Part shown: one piece after another, positions 7,563 through 60,600 of the stretch
How positions within the stretch are numbered: the stretch's first letter is position 1
Layout of the letters: every line of letters starts with the position of its first letter
Made by a program: the position numbers and the translations under genes
Notes under the pieces: generated by a model
Database searches by the model: none
Seen by the model: only the letters and a program-made list of their open reading frames with translations
Told to the model about the DNA's origin: nothing
NCBI GenBank assembly: GCA_024679065.1
Contig: JAGIQG010000040.1
Coordinates: 6,820,001 to 6,884,000, forward strand
Direction of reading: 5' to 3'
Origin: Sphyrna mokarran
Lineage: Eukaryota
DNA: 64,000 nucleotides

Positions 7563-7942
7563 GGGGCAGCATGGTGGTAGAGTGGTTAGCACTGCTGCTT
7601 CACAGCTCCAGGGACTTGGGTTTGATTCCTGGCTTGGGTCACTATCTGTGTGGAGTCTATACGTTCTCCCTGTGTCTGCATGGCTTTCCTCCGGGTGCTT
7701 TGGTTTCCTCCCACAGGTTCGACCTCAACCTTGGTGTTGTGCAACTTCTTACTGTATTCCTCCCACAGTCCAAAGGTGTGCAAGTTAGGTTGATTGGCCA
7801 TGCTGAATTGACTGCAGATGCATAATTAGGGGATTAGTGAGTAAAATATGTAGGGATATGGGTTTGGACCTGGGCGGGGATTGTGGTCAATGCAGACTCG
7901 ATGGGCTCTTTCTATACTGTAGGGTTTCTATGATTCTATGTT
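7563..7942 (+). mobile_element. tRNA-derived SINE (HE1/V-SINE-like)
   Basis: Full head, V-domain and tail, with a small internal insertion. Confidence 0.8.
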
Positions 7943-21843: not shown

Positions 21844-21943
21844 TTCCCTTGGCTGTGGTTTCGCTAGATGGTAGGAAGGGACAATGGGAATCTCGTTCAT
21901 CCATTCATGCGCATCACTCATTAGATGACGAGGCATTTGGCTA
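21844..21943 (-). rRNA. 100-bp 28S rRNA fragment (orphon) starting exactly at the R2 insertion site
   Basis: Minus strand TAGCCAAATGCCTCGTCATCTAATGAGTGATGCGCATGAATGGATGAACGAGATTCCCATTGTCCCTTCCTACCATCTAGCGAAACCACAGCCAAGGGAA; about 5-6 mismatches to the conserved vertebrate 28S sequence as recalled. Confidence 0.92.
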
Positions 21944-23193
21944 TTTTCAGGAGACACCCTGGAGAGCATCTTGTTCGAATTTTATTGTCGCTGCACTTCT
22001 GAAAGGAATCAGAACTTCATCCACCAGATGTTACCACAGCCCTTAGGCGATAGGCAGAAACAGAGAATTGATCTCAGTACGATATGGCCACAACCCCCAT
22101 AATTGCAGACAAGCAGACTGAATCACACCACTGGGACGTATATTGGGAAGGCTAGTTATTGCTCATTTGTTCAGAGCCGTTTACCCATAAAACATCATTT
22201 GATGCTACAAAGCGGTTTTTATTAAGTAACACACCACAACAGTACAACAAGCAACACAACAATTCCCACAACGCAACCGTAACATGATACCCGCTTGCAC
22301 AACCCGGAAGCTATATCGATCGCCGTCTAACCATACGCCACCCCTCGGGGCATGGAAGATTTCATGTTATTTTTGGTAGTATGAGAGGTTCCTGCGAACC
22401 TACTCCTTCACATCATCATCTGGATTGTGATCACCATGAACGTGATGGGGCACCAACGACCATTCATGTCATCACACCAGGTGTGGTATATGTGACTCCC
22501 CTTGAAACCGAGTGTCTGGGCTGGAGGTCTCGATAAGGTTTCTGCTACCTTGATAGGCACAATCTGCATCCTTCGGGTCCAATGCAAATCACCAACTACC
22601 CCCGGGACAGGCTGGAATCTGTTTCGTCAAAGTTTCTTTAAATTACCGTGTTTACAAGTACAGGAGCATGTTTGGCGGTTCTCAGCTAGTCGGCTCCCTT
22701 GCAAACCTGATCAGGTTAAGGCTTACCTACCCTGCAGGGCCCTCGACCAGGCTCGACTCACTGTGGTCTAGAACGCCAAGATAACTGCGGTTAAGCAGAT
22801 TCAGCCACAAACTACTCCAACAATACCACGTGTATCATGCTGGCAGTTTGGGTGGTAGTCGTCATGGGTTAGCATGAATTGCACCTGCTATTTGTTTCTC
22901 GACCAGTCAACAAATATCATCCCTAGCGCCCTCAGGGATGATACCAGGTGGTTTCAGCGGAAGGGCATGACTCGCTGTGCTATAGAAACCAGAAAATTCA
23001 TACAGCTACCTGAGATTGGCAATTCTGGATGGAGCCTTTGCGCATGAATGGAATGAAAAACCAATCTCAACCAACCTGTTTGCAACTGCACTCTGACAGA
23101 GGACAGAAGTGCAATTTCATCCGCATTCACTCCTCAGCCAGTTGCTTTAGCCATCGCCACATGGCCGTAGCAGCGATGCTTCCGGCGGGACCA
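21944..23193 (-). mobile_element. Candidate non-autonomous (internally deleted) R2-derived element
   Basis: 3' end ...CCTGAAAA joined directly to 28S TAGCC; HDV-ribozyme 3' half at the 5' end; no RT or endonuclease ORF visible inside. Confidence 0.65.
23141..23193 (-). ncRNA. 3' half of an R2-type HDV-like self-cleaving ribozyme (truncated)
   Basis: TGG-TCCCGCC-GG-AAG-CATCGCTGC(9-nt loop)GTGGCGATG-GCTAA-AGCAAC = P3', P1', P1.1, P4, J4/2, P2'. TCCCGCC is complementary to 28S GGCGGGA at -28 from the R2 site. Confidence 0.6.
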
Positions 23194-23222
23194 TTGAATT
23201 ATTATTACCATTATTATTACCG

Positions 23223-24557
23223 TTGGAGAGAATTATTAGGGATAGGATTTATAATTATTTAGAGAGAAATGAATTGATTGGGGATAGTCAGCATGGTTTT
23301 GTGAAGGGTAGGTCGTGCCTTACTAACCTCATTGAGTTTTTTGAAAAAGTGACCAAAGAGGTGGATGGGGGTAAGGCGGTTGATGTGGTATATATGGACT
23401 TTAGTAAGGCGTTTGATAAGGTGGCCCATGGAAGACTTCTGCAGAAAATGCAGATGTATGGGATAGAGGGTGATTTAGCTAATTGGATTAGGAATTGGCT
23501 AGCAGATAGAAGACAGAGGGTGGTGGTTGATGGGAGATATTCATCGTGGAGTTCGGTGACAAGTGGTGTACCTCAGGGGTCTGTTTTGGGGCCCCTGCTG
23601 TTTGTAATTTTTATAAATGATCTGGATGAGGGTATTGAAGGATGGATTAGTAAATTTGCAGATGACACTAAAGTCGGTGGAGTGGTAGATAGTGAAGAGG
23701 GGTGTTATAGTTTGCAGAGGGACTTGGACAAGTTGCAGAGCTGGGCCGAGAGGTGGCAAATGGAGTTTAATGTGGAAAAGTGTGAGGTAATGCACTATGG
23801 CAGAAATAATAAATGTGTAGAGTATAGGGCTAATGGTAGGATTCTTAATAGTGTTGATGAACAGAGGGATCTTGGTGTATATGTGCATAGATCCCTGAAA
23901 GTAGGCAGTCAAGTCGATAAGGTTGTTAAGAAGGCATATGGAGTCTTAGCTTTTATTGGTAGGGGGATTGAATTTCGGAGCCGCAACGTCATGTTGCAAC
24001 TGTACAAAACTCTAGTGCGGCCGCACTTGGAGTATTGTGTGCAGTTCTGGTCCCCACATTATAAGAAAGATGTGGAGGCATTGGAGAGGGTACAGAGGAG
24101 GTTTACCAGGATGTTGCCTGGTATGGAGGGCAGGTCTTATGAAGAGAGGCTGAGGGATTTGCGGTTGTTTTCGTTAGAAAGGAGGCGGCTAAGAGGGGAC
24201 CTTATCGAAACATATAAGATGATTAGAGGTTTAGATAGGGTGGACAGTGATAGCCTTTTTCCTAGGATGGAGAAAGCTAGCACGAGGGGACACAGCTTTA
24301 AATTAAGGGGTGATAGTTATAGGACGGATATCAGAGGTAGGTTCTTTACCCAAAGGGTGGTTAGGGAGTGGAATGCCCTGCCTGCAGCAGTTGTAGATGC
24401 GCCAAGTTTGGTGGCGTTTAAGAGGTTAGTTGATAAGTATATGGAAGAGAAGGGAATGGTTTAGTTTGGAGGGTCATTGCTTTTTATATTGGTCGGCGCA
24501 ACATCGAAGGCAGAAGGGCCTGTTCTGTGCTGTAATGTTCTATGTTCTATGTTCTAT
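23223..24557 (+). mobile_element. Young CR1 LINE, 5'-truncated, open RT and C-terminal frame (413 aa)
   Basis: ORF 23223-24464 with QHGF/GVPQG/FADD; (TTCTATG)n tail; 12-bp tandem filler ATTATTATTACC x2 at the 5' junction. Confidence 0.95.
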
Positions 24558-25615
24558 TGGAGAAGCATGACTCACTGTATCATAGAAGCAAGAAAATTCA
24601 CACAGTTACTGTAACCATGGCTCTCCTTCATAGTTACTCCCACCAAACTTCACTGTCAAGATCGATATTGGCTTTCCAACAACTCCCTATTAATGTGTTG
24701 GAGATGTTGACATCATTATTCACCAGCGTGGGGAGCAGTTGAAACTTGCATTATATTTTAATCCTGTTCCTTTACTGTTGATTCTGCTGCTCAATGTGTT
24801 AACCGTTAAATAGTCTCGTGTCGAGCAAAATCTGCAGGTGACGTCAGAGAAACAAGACTGGGAGAGTCCAATTGCCCTAAAGATAAGGAAGTGAAGAAAT
24901 CCATCAAATTACTGTTTGGTCTATCAGGAAATTTTAGCCTCTTGTGATCGCTGTTAATTTTTTTTTATAAAACCAATTGTATCTTCTAAATTAAATTCGA
25001 TTGGATCTAATTGAAATTTTGTTCAGGACCTGGGATTTATGTTCCAACTCCTGATCTGCTGCAACAATGCATATATTGATGCAATGATCCATTTACAATT
25101 TAGCAAGAGTCTGAAGAATGTAGTGTAATTTCCATTTATTGGAAGTATGAAATTTATTAAACAGTGAACAGATATTGCATTATCTGACATTATACACAAA
25201 ATTTAGTCTCAGTCAGACACAACAATGAGGTCTGTTTTGCTTTATTCATCCTGGTAAATCCATGCCCAGAAATTGTAGAAAAAGGAAATTAAACATTTTC
25301 AGTTCCGAGGGACACTGGATCTGAATAGTTAATTCACTTAATTCAGAATGGACAGGGCAGATTATGTTCCACAGTAGGGTATCCTGATGTTAACTTGTGA
25401 CTGTAGCATTTTACATCAGCTCAAACAGAGATCCCCCAAAGAAAAATCCGCCAGTTTAGCCTCCTCCACAATCCTCAAGTCACTACTTTTTCTCATGGTC
25501 ACTGTAATCCTGCTTCTCCCCCCACCCCCCTGCGCTCCCCCATTCATGCATAGTCACTATTGAATCAAGTCATGATGAACTGATGGAGTGAGACCAGATT
25601 AATGAGTGCCGCATA

Positions 25616-44170: not shown

Positions 44171-47100
44171 AGGCTGATTGGTATCAATAAATTGTCCCTG
44201 AACTGGATCTCCCTTAATCTGGCGCACATATAATTCCTTAAATGCGCACCCCCTTTATTGTGGAGTTCCACTAGAGGTAGATAAAAACGTCGATGATCGA
44301 CGAAAGACTTGAATAAAACACTCACTGATGCTAAATTGTTGCGCGGACTTGATGGGCCGAAGGGCCTATTTCCTGTGCTGCGCTATTGTTTGTTCTATGC
44401 GTAGTTGGAAACGGACTTCCTCCTCTGCCGTTCATAACCCTTCAGCATTTTGAGCATACATACATTTACTATACTTGCAGGGAAAACATGTGACTTAATC
44501 TCTCTCGAATTTACCTGCTGTAGTGTTGGATGCACATTTTTAAATCCTGTATTTACCAATGAAAATTTGTGATCCCTCCTGTACCACTTATTGTGACACG
44601 TTCCCCTTCGGACATTGATATGCAAATTTCGAAACTGTCGTCCAAGTCATGAATAAATATAGTGGATATTTGAAACACCTGTGCAGATTCCTGGCATTTG
44701 TAAAGTTCTGTAAATCTGAATCTATAACATTTATCCCAACTTCCTCTATCCTTCTTTATGCAACTTATTTTCTGAGCTTAGTTGTGGAAGATTATGGAAC
44801 GACTACAGATTCCCTTACAGTGAACATTGTGGGACACACTAATCTCTACCCACTGGCATAATCCACAAACAAATCAAAGAGATTAGTAACATCTCGCATA
44901 CGCTTAACACAGAAATCTGGACCCTCGTCATCTGACGTATAATAAGTCTGTGTAAACTCAGCCAAACACATGTTACATCGTTGAGAGGGAAAAAAATAGA
45001 ATTTGGAATAACGAAGTGTTAAATGTAGGAGGATAACTATACTTGCGATTCGAAGCAGAATTATGGACATAGGTTTTACTAGGAATGCATGCTACGATTT
45101 TCGAATACTTTACTGAATTAAAAACAATCTGCACAAAAAAATCTTCACGTACAATGTTCATGGATAATGAAGCTCACCTAATCTTACATTGGCCAGGAAT
45201 TTTCAGCTAAGCATCAGGTGCCGAAACATTTAATTCTACCATTTCAACATTAGGCTACCTATGGTATTCTTACACTGCTGCCCTATGAATAAGGTTGTGC
45301 GGGAAAAAAACTATGATTGATGCGAAGAACTGCTGCAAAATTCCAAATTTCAGAGGGATCTAATTGTTCTGGTGCATGAGCCCCAAAATCTATTAATTAA
45401 GAAGACGAAAGCAAATGCATAATTTAACAAGAGAGGAAATGAACTTACAAATAACAAAGATATTATGCTTCAATTATACAGGCATTGGTGAGATTGCGTT
45501 CTGGATAATGTGAGTAGTTTTCGTCTTCTTATTTACACAAGTACATAAAAGGGCTGGAACAGATTTCTGCATCTATTCCTGCAATGAAATGGGTTTTCTT
45601 ATGAGGCTAAAGTCGAAATAATATATTTGTTTTCAGTGGGGTTTAGAATTGCGGGTTGTGACCTGGTTGAAGTACTTACGATTCTAAATAGCATTGACAC
45701 AGTAGACATGGAAAAGATGATATTCTGAGTCTTATGGGTGAACCCATAACTAGAGGGCCATCGTTTTCAAATTAGTGGTCTGCTTTTTTGGGACAGCAAT
45801 GAAGTGATTATTTTTCTATTTGCAGCTTTGGAATTCTCTGCTCAGAAAGGAGAGGAAGCCAGGTATTTGAATCTATCCAAGGCAGAAGTTGATAGATTAT
45901 TGTTCGGAAAGAGGCCAATAGTCATGGGAACGTGGCATTTAAAACACAAAGAGATTTACCAGCATATTGTCCAGTGGTGGAACAGGCTCGAGGGATTGAA
46001 TTGTCTACCTCTGCTCCTGTATCATAACGTGCTTCAAGAACGTGATTTAACACCCATAGATATTAAAGATCAAAGTATTATCACAGTCAGAGTGCCAAAA
46101 CAAAGTTAAGAGAATGGCAGAGGAAATCCAGAAATTTCAATTACAGTAATTCATTCGAAAAATTCCCGTACACTGATCGTGTACGGATCTTGTTCAACAA
46201 GAATGGAGAGGTGTAAAAGTATCCATCTCTAACCTCAATATGATGTCTACCTGTGCATTCCAAAATAAAAAGTCCCAGAATTTGTCTGGAAGTAATGCAT
46301 GTTTACTTCTGACAGCAGAAATTAACTTAAGACTATTAGAAACAGGAACAGAAGTAGGCCATTCTGTTCTTCATGTCTGCTTAATCATTTAATAATATTA
46401 AAACTGATTTACCAGTTACACAGTCCTCGTTCCTGTTTTATCTCTGTCACTCTTAATTCCCACACTTATTTAGAACCTATCAATCTGAGCCTTGGAAATG
46501 CTCAACTATTAAGTTTCCGCACCTTCTTGGGGTAAAGAATTACAAATATTCACGACCTTTTGAGACAATAAATTCTTTCCCAACTCCGTCTTTCATGATC
46601 ACAACTTTATCCTGTAACAATATGCTCTTATCCTCTACTCTCCATGAGTGCAAATATTCTCTGAAAATTTACCTCGCCAAACCCGCTAAGAATAATTTTG
46701 TTTCTTGAGTTCTGTTCGGGAGATCAAAGATTACTAGCGAGTCCGCACGTCTTCCATTTATCAATCAACCCAAGCTTAACGTGGATGTTGACATAGTTCT
46801 TGAACGAAACATTAAACATCTTGGTAAATTTTACTGATTCACAGCTTTAATTCTGAAGATAATTCATTCGATAATTTTTTTCTAAATTTAATACGTACCT
46901 TTGACACCTCCTAACAATTGAACACTCATTTCTTTTTCTTTCATCCAGCTTTTCCTCCTTTTCAATATTTTAAAACATTCTTATTGTATCAACCCGTACT
47001 CAAATTTATTTCGTAGGAATTTGAACAATTCACTTATTTGTTTATTTGTATCTATTTAACCTCTTGCTTGTGAAATCTCTGATGAACGAGAGTGACAGCA

Positions 47101-49579: not shown

Positions 49580-49853
49580 ATGCCTTCAGTACATATGTCG
49601 ATCAAACACCACGGACGGTAACTAAAGAAACAGGCGAATCTCTGACAATCAGCTGCATGCTAAGGGATAGTGGCTATAGCTTGGAGGGAACAAGCTGGTT
49701 TCGGAAAAATCCTGGTTCAACAGATTGGGAACGCATTACCATTGGCGGCCGATATTTTCAAGAAATCAGCAGGGGAAGCAAGTGGTCTTCTCTGCAAATC
49801 AAGGACTTAACAGTTGAAGACAGCGGCACATTTTACTGCAAAGCTCAAAAAAC
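49580..49853 (+). CDS. IgNAR: IgNAR variable exon (VNAR, germline, only the two canonical Cys; type IV/IIb-like)
   Basis: Acceptor ...CATACAG; YVDQTPRTVTKETGESLTISC...TSWFRKNPGSTDWERITIGGRY...LQIKDLTVEDSGTFYCKA, with the VNAR-specific FR2/CDR2 deletion. Confidence 0.97.
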
Positions 49854-49891
49854 CACAGTAATTAGGTTGAACTTTCAGTCGTACAAAAATA
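49854..49891 (+). other. V recombination signal (22-bp spacer)
   Basis: CACAGTA-22-ACAAAAATA. Confidence 0.9.
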
Positions 49892-55810: not shown

Positions 55811-58298
55811 TCTGCAAGAAGCAGTGATGCCATCAGAATAATTTTAATCTTAATCCTCTGTGTTGGCATTGTGATTATTCTATCAGTCACTTACTTAACA
55901 TTTAATGCATCTCTGTTTCATAATATCTGCATTACAGACGCATTATTGCACTCTCGTATTAATGTAGGGATCCTTCTTAAAGAAAGCAACTTGCTTAATT
56001 ATTATAAAAGTAATATAATAAAACATTATTATAAAAAGAACAGTGACAACTTTAGCGTAATAATACAACCCCAAAGCAGTTCGTGGGATCGCCAAACACT
56101 GAAGTGTAACAAGGAATACTGAAGGTGACATTAATGCAATTGTCAAAAGTTTGATTAGAGGGGTAGGTTTTTTTATTATTTATATAATATTGTTTGTTGC
56201 ATTTTATTTAATGAGTATGATAAAAGGTAGAGGTCATATAGAAGGGCGGTGAGGCTTTGTCAGAGAATGACAGAACATTAGGAACGGCCGCTAATTGGAA
56301 GACGACCAATGTTGGAGCAATTGAAATCGGACACAGATAAACATGCACAGGTACTCTGTTCTTAGTGGAACATCCAGTTGCGTTTTGAGACGTAGGAGAA
56401 GAATCTCATGAAAAGATTTGCAGAGAAGGATACACATTTTAAGATAAATATGTTGATTGTCTTGGGCATGTATACGTCACTGAGCATTGAAGTCATGGGA
56501 TAAAGATATTTAGTGTCGTTAAAAATCGGTCGATAGTGGCTCTGGTGGCTTTAAATTCATGGAAGTGAGAATATAGTGTGATGATTTAGAATGGATTCGA
56601 ATAGAGAAAGGAAATCAATGAATGATGATTTCAGCAGCACTTATGCTCAGTGAAAGTGAAGCTGGATATTGTATCTGAGGTGAAACCTAATACGCTTGAG
56701 AAATGAAATGAACACTTGGTTGGAAGCTCATCTTGTGGTCAAAACAATGTTCCATTGTTGTCGTCAGTCTAATTGGGCCTCAGATGGAAAGTGGGTTCTA
56801 TAGTGGCACCTGATGATCTTTGCATTCCCAACGTTTATTTCAAGGGAACAATTGCATTTCAGTGCTGGATGTTGGACTAACAGTTGGTTAATTCAGTGAC
56901 ATTTGAGCAATTGCTGTTTGTGGGGTGTTAAGTGTTGTCAGTATACAGGTGTGTAATCTCGCTTTGGTGAGAGATGATGTCGCCGAGGTGCAAATTGATA
57001 TAAGAAGTAAGAACATATATGAGAGGAAAAATAAATTCAATGTACATATAATTTTAGACAACCACTTTACGCCAAGTCAAAAAGGATGAAATTTCTGGCA
57101 CATTGAATTCATAATCACATGGTTATCAATTTAAGTGTTGACAAGCAACTTTAAATGTTCATTATCATCTCAATTCCTTTAACACAATGTCCATACTTGA
57201 ATATTCTGCTGATAACTGGTGGCTGGGGGGTAGATATGGAGCTGACTGTCCTAAGGTTGACTTAATATTTTCTTTATTCTGTTACCAACCAGAGTGTCAG
57301 TAGTTATCAAGAGATTATCAAAAACCTAAGTTTAAAGTACGGGAACCAGCTCCCTATCTTGTTCCCTTACAGCTATTTACCAGTTGATAAATGTACACAG
57401 TAATTCTCCAGGCAGTTCCATACCTGTTATGGTTTTTTTTATATATATAAAATTGAACATTGCATCAAATAGCTTGGGAAATGCTGAATGCCCCGCTGCA
57501 ATTTGCCAAAGAAAATTGAGATAAGTCTTAAAATAAATCTCAAATTCTGTTTGCCAATGCACAGCTAAGCGAAGGTACAATTTTAAGTTGACTCTGTACC
57601 TGCTAGCATTGACCATAAACATGTAAACATGTAAAATAATTAAACCGCTTGGAAATTTCTGTAAACTCAATTAATGCCCTTGAAAGGCAGAGTCCACTAG
57701 ACTCTGCAGTATAGAGTTTTTCTCAACACAATTTCCCGATGACAGCAAGAATTTACACCCTGTAAGATGCACCTCAGTTATGTTCTATAATACTGAACTT
57801 TTCATTGGCACTAAATTCCAGGCAACTGTAATGATGAATAGGAATGGATCAGTGGGGATACAAGTATTCTGTGATGTGTCGACTATATCAACTCTTTCAA
57901 CTCAGTGCCGAGAGTCAATCATGTCATCTTACACAAAAATATCTGACCTGTATTTTTGAAAACAATTCAAGTGTTGTCAGGTTTTTAAGGCTAATGATAT
58001 AAATGGAAAATAATACACGTCAATGGATTAAGTAGGTCAACGAAGGAAAAAAACATTTTTCACATTTTCATAACGCCACAAATCTTATGCTAACCATGAA
58101 ATGCCTCTCGAATATAGACACTGATTCATTCAGACAGATAGTGCCGCTAATGTGCTCTCACATAGAGCAATTTGATATTGCCGGGATTATTAAATTTCGA
58201 TTTCGATGTTGGTTCAGGAATAAATTTTGGCTAACCATGTTGAAAACGATTTAATTCTATCATATAAGAGACTAAGACCTGTTTTGTAATTTTGGCAG

Positions 58299-58607
58299 CA
58301 ACTCCCCCAGTCATCAGTCTCTTCTTTGAAACTGATGAGTTGAGAGCAACGGGGTTTGTGCAGCTGATTTGTTTGATCCGCAAATACAAACCAAAAAGTA
58401 TTGGAGTGAGCTGGGAGAAAAATGGAAACGCCTTACGTAATGGCTTTACCACTACATCCTCACGGGAAACAGCAGATGGAAAATTCCAATCCAGCAGCAT
58501 TCTTAAGTTGCCGCTTCAGGAATGGAACAGCGGTTCCACATACAGCTGCCAAGTGACCCATTCTGCTACCAACAGCAACAAACGGAGAGAGATTAGATCA
58601 ACATCAG
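58299..58607 (+). CDS. IgNAR: IgNAR C1 exon
   Basis: TPPVISLF...FVQLICLI...VSWEKNG...LPLQEWNSGSTYSCQVTHSATNSNKRREIRSTS; AG/GT phase-1 boundaries. Confidence 0.95.
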
Positions 58608-58899
58608 GTGAGGAAATGGAATCAACTGACAAACTTCCAGATGTCATACAATCTTACTTTATTTTCAGGATTGAATTCATTGGGAAGCTGGCACAAAAAT
58701 TATTCGATAAGCATTAATCCTAGAAAGGAAACCCAGGCAATTTTGTAAAAACTCAGCAGTGTCTTTGGCGAGAGAAGACTTTGACTTTGACTTTGGAATC
58801 CGATTGACTCATCTTTAGTAATTTATTTTTTTAAATTTTATATTCACAAAATTTCACATTTTGTTGTTGGAGATACTGGAGCAGGTCAATTGGGTCATA

Positions 58900-60284: not shown

Positions 60285-60600
60285 AGATCAAAACAGCACG
60301 GGAAACAGGTCCTTCTGCCCAACGAGCCCACGCCGCCAGCCCGATGTTCCCACCTCTACCCGCGATCCCTGTCCATGTTTATAGATATATGGATTAAAAA
60401 CAAAATTTGAGACAATTTAGGGAGAATTTGTTTTGCCAATTAACCTAAGAGCACATCTTTGGGATGTGGGAGGAAACCGGAGCTCCCGGAGAAAACCCAC
60501 GCAAGCACGGGGAGAATGCGCAAACTCCCATAGACACAGGCCCAAATCCATGTATCTGCACAGCACAGCGATAGTCACTGAGCTGTCGTGTTGCCCATCA
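60285..60600 (-). mobile_element. Diverged V-SINE-like SINE
   Basis: GGGAGGAAACCGGAGCTCCCGGAGAAAACCCACGCA is the reverse V-domain. Confidence 0.65.

Follow-up and report, generated by a model that had tools for sequence, protein, structure and literature searches.

Dispersed copies of R2 and of a non-coding, SIDE-like passenger family in a shark genome

We analysed a 64,000-nucleotide stretch of a shark genome (the window) and found that an R2-like segment in it, joined to 28S rRNA, is an old, dead and formerly full-length member of a non-coding family that, by analogy, appears to work like the R2 SIDEs of Drosophila. Copies of this passenger family and of an autonomous R2, its putative partner, lie across the shark chromosomes and are likely off-target insertions launched from ribosomal DNA (rDNA). 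R2 is a model site-specific retrotransposon, known for insertion into ribosomal RNA genes only, and its bird relatives are in development as specific gene-insertion tools. Here, a close relative of bird R2 that keeps all DNA-binding domains is found with hundreds of natural off-site insertions and at least nine full frames. Since rDNA erases its own history, the dispersed copies are a rare dated record of the evolution of R2, of the ribozyme head and of the passenger, including what looks like a swap of the 3' tail in the passenger lineage; the off-site junctions would profile how priming proceeds in vivo away from the 28S site.

The copy in the window

On the minus strand of the window the element ends in ...CCTGAAAA at 21944 and is followed, from 21943 on, by TAGCCAAATG..., which is 28S. 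The R2-type 3' junction claimed by the original prediction is thus real: the 100-nt 28S tail (21844..21943, minus strand) starts exactly at the R2 insertion site and matches the genome's own rDNA fragment at 95 of 100 positions, and Rfam reports it as LSU with an E value of 6.7e-6, under the gathering score. This tail is likely a product of read-through. The type A body (1,250 nt, 21944..23193, minus strand) had been described as CpG-rich and free of reverse transcriptase (RT) or endonuclease remnants, and both descriptions held. Its observed/expected CpG ratio of 0.62 compares with 0.31 and 0.37 for the flanking 5 kb on either side, and none of the six reading frames holds an open frame longer than 91 codons. 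The last ~55 nt (21944..21998, minus strand) form an R2-like 3' terminus. The likeness is weak in the window copy alone, and is seen in a sister copy, which is 75–83% identical to R2 3' ends over 35–55 nt (E 6e-6 to 3e-3). The terminus is a likely binding site of the R2 protein.

The original prediction also placed an R2-type ribozyme remnant at the other end, with the element starting at 23193. The ribozyme fold was supported and the start was not, as the true 5' head (88 nt) lies at 24557..24644 on the minus strand, past a young 5'-truncated LINE that entered the L3 loop of the ribozyme (23197..24555, plus strand, flanked by a ~4-bp CAAT duplication). We take this LINE to be a CR1 from its RT frame and tail, without a library match; it is 98.1% identical to another CR1 copy over 23223-24557, and 26 additional bases precede this part (23197-23222, plus strand), at the 5' end of the LINE. 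Because the head is found beyond the CR1, the window copy must once have been full length. The head is 84% identical to that of a sister copy (E 4e-11) and contains 17 nt of 28S from -28 (the 5' strand of P1), the J1/2 hairpins and the 5' strands of P2 and P3 of an HDV-like ribozyme, all decayed. The 3' half of the ribozyme (23140..23193, minus strand), placed by alignment and pair counts, comprises P3', P1' (the partner strand of the 28S head), P1.1, P4, J4/2 and P2'. Alignment to the family puts the predicted catalytic C, which belongs to J4/2, at 23150 (minus strand). The helices are named, and the catalytic position is assigned, according to the HDV layout. Two further ribozyme-shaped units follow on the minus strand, both with approximate limits: a second at 22890..23085, whose P1–P4 pairing is kept in the family, and a third at 22660..22795, seen by eye in the family alignment.

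A VNAR exon at 49594-49860 (plus strand; best solved match E 7e-33) marks the window as an IgNAR region and lies ~26 kb from the element, in agreement with the position proposed for it. The element has no evident link to IgNAR and no effect on IgNAR was shown. Downstream of the VNAR exon, a frame at 58268-58717 (plus strand) resembles an immunoglobulin constant exon. A small fragment of an R2/B-type 3' terminus also lies in the window, at 44261-44326 (plus strand, 78–81% identity). Some 100–190 nt of the R2 3' UTR (L045:7000-7200) and of type B match an abundant short repeat that occurs many times in the window, for example at 951-1088, 7581-7715 and 60435-60540. About 20 kb past the window end (G000:C994, ~6.90-6.91 Mb; L120/L228) lies an older, decayed full-length R2 with a 9-nt match to 28S at its 3' junction.

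The passenger family and its R2 partner

The window copy had been read as stranded outside the rDNA. It is neither rare nor single: its type A body has at least 47 genome matches among the best 40 of 588 candidates scored, ~30 of them near full length and 73–80% identical, spread over many chromosome-scale contigs; R2 itself is dispersed too. A word from the A-type 3' part has 47 exact matches (control word, 4), and an 18-mer common to the 3' ends of type B and R2 has 365 (control, 0); such exact-word counts are lower bounds on copy number. The 19-mer just upstream of the R2 site has 228 exact matches in the genome, and the 23-mer just downstream only 11. We examined 90 of the 228 heads, and 89 lead into the passenger family or R2. 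All of the first 30 loci, read by eye, run into family heads; the next 60 comprise 43 of type B, 12 of type A, three with the head only, one old R2 head and one plain 28S piece. Since sampling relied either on an exact match to the head or on similarity to the query, young copies and full-length ones are over-represented.

Type A (~1.3 kb, as in the window) and type B (1.4–1.75 kb) have a 5' part of ~880 nt in common and differ in their 3' parts. The 3' 540–630 nt of type B are up to 79–83% identical to R2 3' UTRs; type A is R2-like only in the ribozyme and in its last ~55 nt. Identity to the nearest copy is 79% for the window copy, up to 93% for the youngest A and up to 99.4% for B. With an intact R2 protein as query, tblastn revealed no coding remnant in 85 family copies including the window copy (best E 0.017, on the wrong strand), and an old R2 copy used as a control gave an E value of 0. 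Neither the 880-nt 5' body nor the A-type 3' body occurs in any of the R2 copies compared, and we found no coding parent of type A in 30 loci with the A-type 3' part (from the best 40 of 186 candidates scored) or in 17 older R2 copies (18 stretches fetched).

In a tree of the shared 5' part of 59 copies the family forms a ladder, and B is one clade nested in A with a support of 1.0. The B copies in the tree were 20 taken at random and three chosen ones, one copy was dropped for want of the anchor motif, and the root was our choice, on the longest branches. The ladder with B inside A suggests one master lineage that exchanged its tail for that of the resident R2, an old type A apparently giving rise to the young type B by gaining the resident R2's 3' UTR. 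Young B copies have a duplicated 72-nt head hairpin, in which the inner 28S copy is mutated and the outer one exact. At three loci (L143, L082, L181) copies stand as head-to-tail tandems, with an element 3' end directly followed by another element head. One B copy at the edge of a small contig (L131, C299) ends in the last bases of a young R2, and the same bases open a 28S-bearing contig (C1614; L044), so that L131 and C1614 are possibly recombinant or a broken assembly join.

The 5' head of the family can be folded as an R2-type HDV-like ribozyme, which is predicted to cut at -28 and whose intact form is broken in the window copy by the CR1. Of 58 family heads, 27 begin their match to 28S at -28 and another 25 between -27 and -25; none continues into upstream 28S. 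In the accessible text of PMC3774820, -28 is the commonest R2 cleavage site, and P1 is built from 28S bases in many R2s. Over 48 pairs, 90.8% of cells in the family alignment are paired, against 34–55% in slid controls, and none of 500 shuffles scored as high for pairing and for covariation; the number of pairs with two-sided changes was not above shuffles (100 of 500 reach the observed count). Compensatory changes are seen in P2 (22 UA and 7 CG) and in the J1/2 stem (14 CG and 14 UA); P1 is just 77.5% paired. The predicted catalytic C is present in all 35 rows with letters at that position, and the core is still perfect in 28 of 43 B copies. A search of the window element against Rfam gave no ribozyme match, and the fold came from the alignment. 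In the second ribozyme-shaped unit, pairing holds for 94–98% of cells across five helices in 59 copies, a figure that carries no shuffle control; the J4/2 sequence of this unit differs from that of the first.

Judging from its domains and best matches, the autonomous partner is a lineage-A R2. A 4.97-kb copy (L045) encodes three zinc fingers, Myb, RT and endonuclease in one frame; the top matches among solved proteins are 9nl3, 9dou and 9nl2 (bird and turtle-type R2, E ~1e-160), with which the N-terminal domains align fully. Since all of these domains are present, we rejected the idea that a loss of zinc fingers or Myb caused the dispersal. The C-terminal part of R2 has at least 152 genome matches (best 150 of 640 candidates scored) and the N-terminal part 151; the dispersed copies lie on chromosome-scale contigs, many near full length (L110-L123, L080-L109, L225-L242), and at least nine have open frames of 1,345–1,358 aa. 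As a set, they form a succession of older subfamilies whose ribozyme heads change from one to the next. The presence of both a non-coding, R2-dependent family and an autonomous R2 supports the R2/SIDE-like system that had been proposed for this shark.

The R2 copies, too, lie mostly outside 28S. Their 3' junctions are not 28S in 29 of 30 cases, the exception being the query copy (L045), and 11 of the 12 full-length copies with a head are off 28S; unrelated flanks surround them, although all or some of the 28S head is kept. Older copies with a 28S head in unrelated flanks reach down to ~50% protein identity. As the partner is dispersed like its passenger, its targeting must be leaky or relaxed: the protein may be either an ordinary leaky R2 with accumulated errors or a relaxed R2.

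Insertion sites and the link to rDNA

We compared 84 3' junctions (12 of type A, 42 of type B and 30 of R2). In 83 of them the target matches 28S for 6 nt or less. TAG follows the junction in 50 of 84 and TAGC in 34 of 84; the background frequencies of the two words within these flanks are 1.6% and 0.3%. At nine empty homologous sites outside 28S, 7–37 target bases were lost upon insertion, and in six of the nine the first three bases after the nick are the same in the empty and the filled site. Target-site duplications were not above shuffles in 66 copies. We saw no 28S likeness at -50 to -11 of the nicks (170 of 640 positions versus 165 expected; 16 sites, five of them improper, being self matches or tandem heads). 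At -10 to -1 there is a small 28S-like excess (58 of 160 versus 40), which is unreliable since two improper 28S-like rows were kept in the set. The preference for TAG(C), with a small target deletion and no duplication, matches the off-target signature of avian R2, whose off-targets in cells are rDNA-like only in the bases directly 3' of the nick, according to the accessible part of PMC11371274. Two sites within CR1 repeats were struck repeatedly by A, B and R2 copies and are natural hot spots (L135, L140, L183, L109 and L121; L081, L091, L147 and L150).

The assembly holds mere rDNA scraps. No type A or B copy was found within an rDNA array; those seen are dispersed, and a few of them join 28S exactly at one end or at both. 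Because the array itself is missing, we infer that the master copies reside in rDNA. Among the 11 exact matches to downstream 28S, eight directly adjoin the 3' end of an element, with 28S tails of 38 to >1,100 nt. The small contig C1614 starts with an R2/B-type end, continues through 28S to its 3' end and then enters repeats. Three copies have 28S on both sides, an R2 (L045), a B (L033) and an A (L004), the last being the closest relative of the window copy; two of the three start near -70. No transduced non-28S flanks were found among 66 two-sided copies. Seven pairs share a 3' flank, at 67–91% identity and inside repeats, as independent insertions would give.

Dispersed fragments of 28S are also common in the genome (best 40 of 474 candidates scored). 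Some of them are plain fragments that start 8–16 nt upstream of the R2 site (L035, L036/L189, L039/L188, L185), and about one-third of the best 40 end at positions 875–882 of the query (L044:6000-7122), hinting at a 28S-derived retrocopy family whose members share their 3' end.

Proposed mechanism and known systems

We consider it probable that masters in rDNA, released by their ribozyme, were inserted off-site by the R2 protein, and that the window copy arose in this way with read-through into 28S. A master at the canonical 28S site would be co-transcribed with rRNA, and its HDV-like ribozyme would cut at -28, as predicted from its structure and from the starts of the copies; cleavage there would explain why every copy opens with a 28S head. 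The lineage-A R2 protein could then bind the 3' end in trans and prime reverse transcription at chromosomal TAG or TAGC sites; the probable reason is that pairing with the primer is needed for the few rRNA bases in which the RNA ends. In the copies and empty sites compared, the target gained no duplication and lost 7–37 bases. In a small share of events, including the one that gave the window copy, copying would have started ~100 nt into the downstream 28S; the CR1 split the ribozyme afterwards, as its place in the L3 loop shows. The dispersed copies would be fossils that trace how a single master lineage evolved, from A to B.

The best surviving alternative is a shark R2 that is a true generalist, with dispersed copies serving as sources and a passenger that is a promoterless SINE independent of rDNA. 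Its attraction is that the ribozyme, which brings its own 28S head, is complete in itself, and any host transcript could release the RNA. The 365 exact R2/B 3'-end 18-mers, set against eight element–28S junctions with the exact 23-mer, are in its favour, as are the nine dispersed R2 copies with full frames and the dispersal of R2 copies ranging from ~50% to 100% in protein identity. However, the read-through tails observed are 28S, the seven flank-sharing pairs are too dissimilar (67–91%, inside repeats) to point to dispersed sources, the tree is ladder-like with one lineage, and the DNA-binding domains of R2 are intact. In addition, insertions are lost from rDNA at a higher rate than from other parts of the genome, according to the accessible part of a recent review (PMC13580325), and this faster purging means that present locations can mislead. 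We therefore regard the generalist as quite unlikely. A lineage-A R2 that largely escaped rDNA, together with a promoterless, ribozyme-released, SINE-like passenger that carries a piece of 28S in its own ribozyme and launches from dispersed loci, we hold to be unlikely.

Launching from rDNA remains the reading that we prefer. The original prediction had allowed both for copying with read-through 28S and for a move as DNA; the former is supported and the latter is not, the window copy being one of hundreds of RNA-derived dispersed copies. Arrival as DNA, or on-target insertion into a pre-existing local 28S fragment, would draw on the commonness of dispersed 28S fragments and on the plain ones starting just upstream of the R2 site. 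Yet the 28S of the window copy stops exactly at -28, as it does in relatives without a 28S tail, and a DNA move has no reason to stop at the predicted cleavage site, which makes this route very unlikely. That the element is a decayed full-length coding R2, or an unrelated repeat adjoining 28S by chance, might be argued from its identity of at most 79% to any other copy found and from a body with no identified parent, but is barely credible and largely refuted by dozens of copies with the same 1.3-kb structure and fixed ends, by the lack of any coding remnant in 85 copies, and by the R2-type ribozyme and 3' end.

The family resembles the Drosophila R2 SIDEs and R2/R1 hybrid SIDEs, as described in the accessible part of PMC3414825, in being non-coding with a 5' R2 ribozyme and an R2 3' end, and also in its dependence on the R2 protein, presumed co-transcription with rDNA, old lineages and exchange of 3' ends. 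The non-coding state is borne out by the frames, by tblastn and by the loci with the A-type 3' part; the ribozyme, recognised by its fold, is broken in the window copy; and the R2 3' end spans 540–630 nt in B and only the last ~55 nt in A. We use the label SIDE-like because rDNA residence and an origin by internal deletion, two of the features that define SIDEs, are putative here. The shark family differs from the fly elements in belonging to a vertebrate, in its size (1.3–1.6 kb), in its three stacked ribozyme-shaped units and in the predicted cleavage at -28. Moreover, the fly SIDEs are described in that text as rare 28S insertions, whereas hundreds of shark copies lie outside rDNA. Neither is the family a classical SINE with a Pol III head: its head is 28S plus ribozyme, not tRNA, 7SL or 5S, and we found no tRNA in the window and no Rfam match at the gathering score. 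In the literature searched, which lay outside Repbase, Dfam and subscription papers, we met no report of a vertebrate R2 SIDE or of a dispersed shark R2, and as far as that search reaches R2 SIDE-like elements are hereby extended to a vertebrate. General background only came from the accessible parts of PMC5786205, PMC11204384, PMC12203849 and 10.64898/2026.06.09.731232.

The shark partner is like the lineage-A vertebrate R2s (bird R2Tg, 9dou/9nl3; 9nl2) in its three zinc fingers, Myb, RT, endonuclease and 28S-derived P1. The shark R2s of PMC13188248 are, in its accessible text, defined by their 28S flanks, and the label non-site-specific is given there to sponge elements only; here, in contrast, at least 150 copies have unrelated flanks on chromosome-scale contigs. 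In having young copies with heterogeneous flanks the shark R2 resembles R2NS-1_SMed and R2NS-1_CSi of flatworms (PMC5035012) and the R2-like BLAG elements of cockroach (PMC7650587). Those elements are of invertebrates and belong to clades D and C or to a separate clade, and the accessible parts of the two reports mention no passenger family. Unlike them, the shark element has retained its 28S head, prefers TAG(C) and includes several copies at the 28S site: non-28S flanks are the rule among its young copies, as in R2NS, yet one R2 (L045) has 28S on both sides and one R2/B-type end (C1614) is joined to 28S. Finally, the off-targets of avian R2 in PRINT make up ~0.1–1% of engineered events in cultured cells, as given in the accessible part of PMC11371274, whereas the shark insertions arose naturally in the germline and became fixed over long periods.
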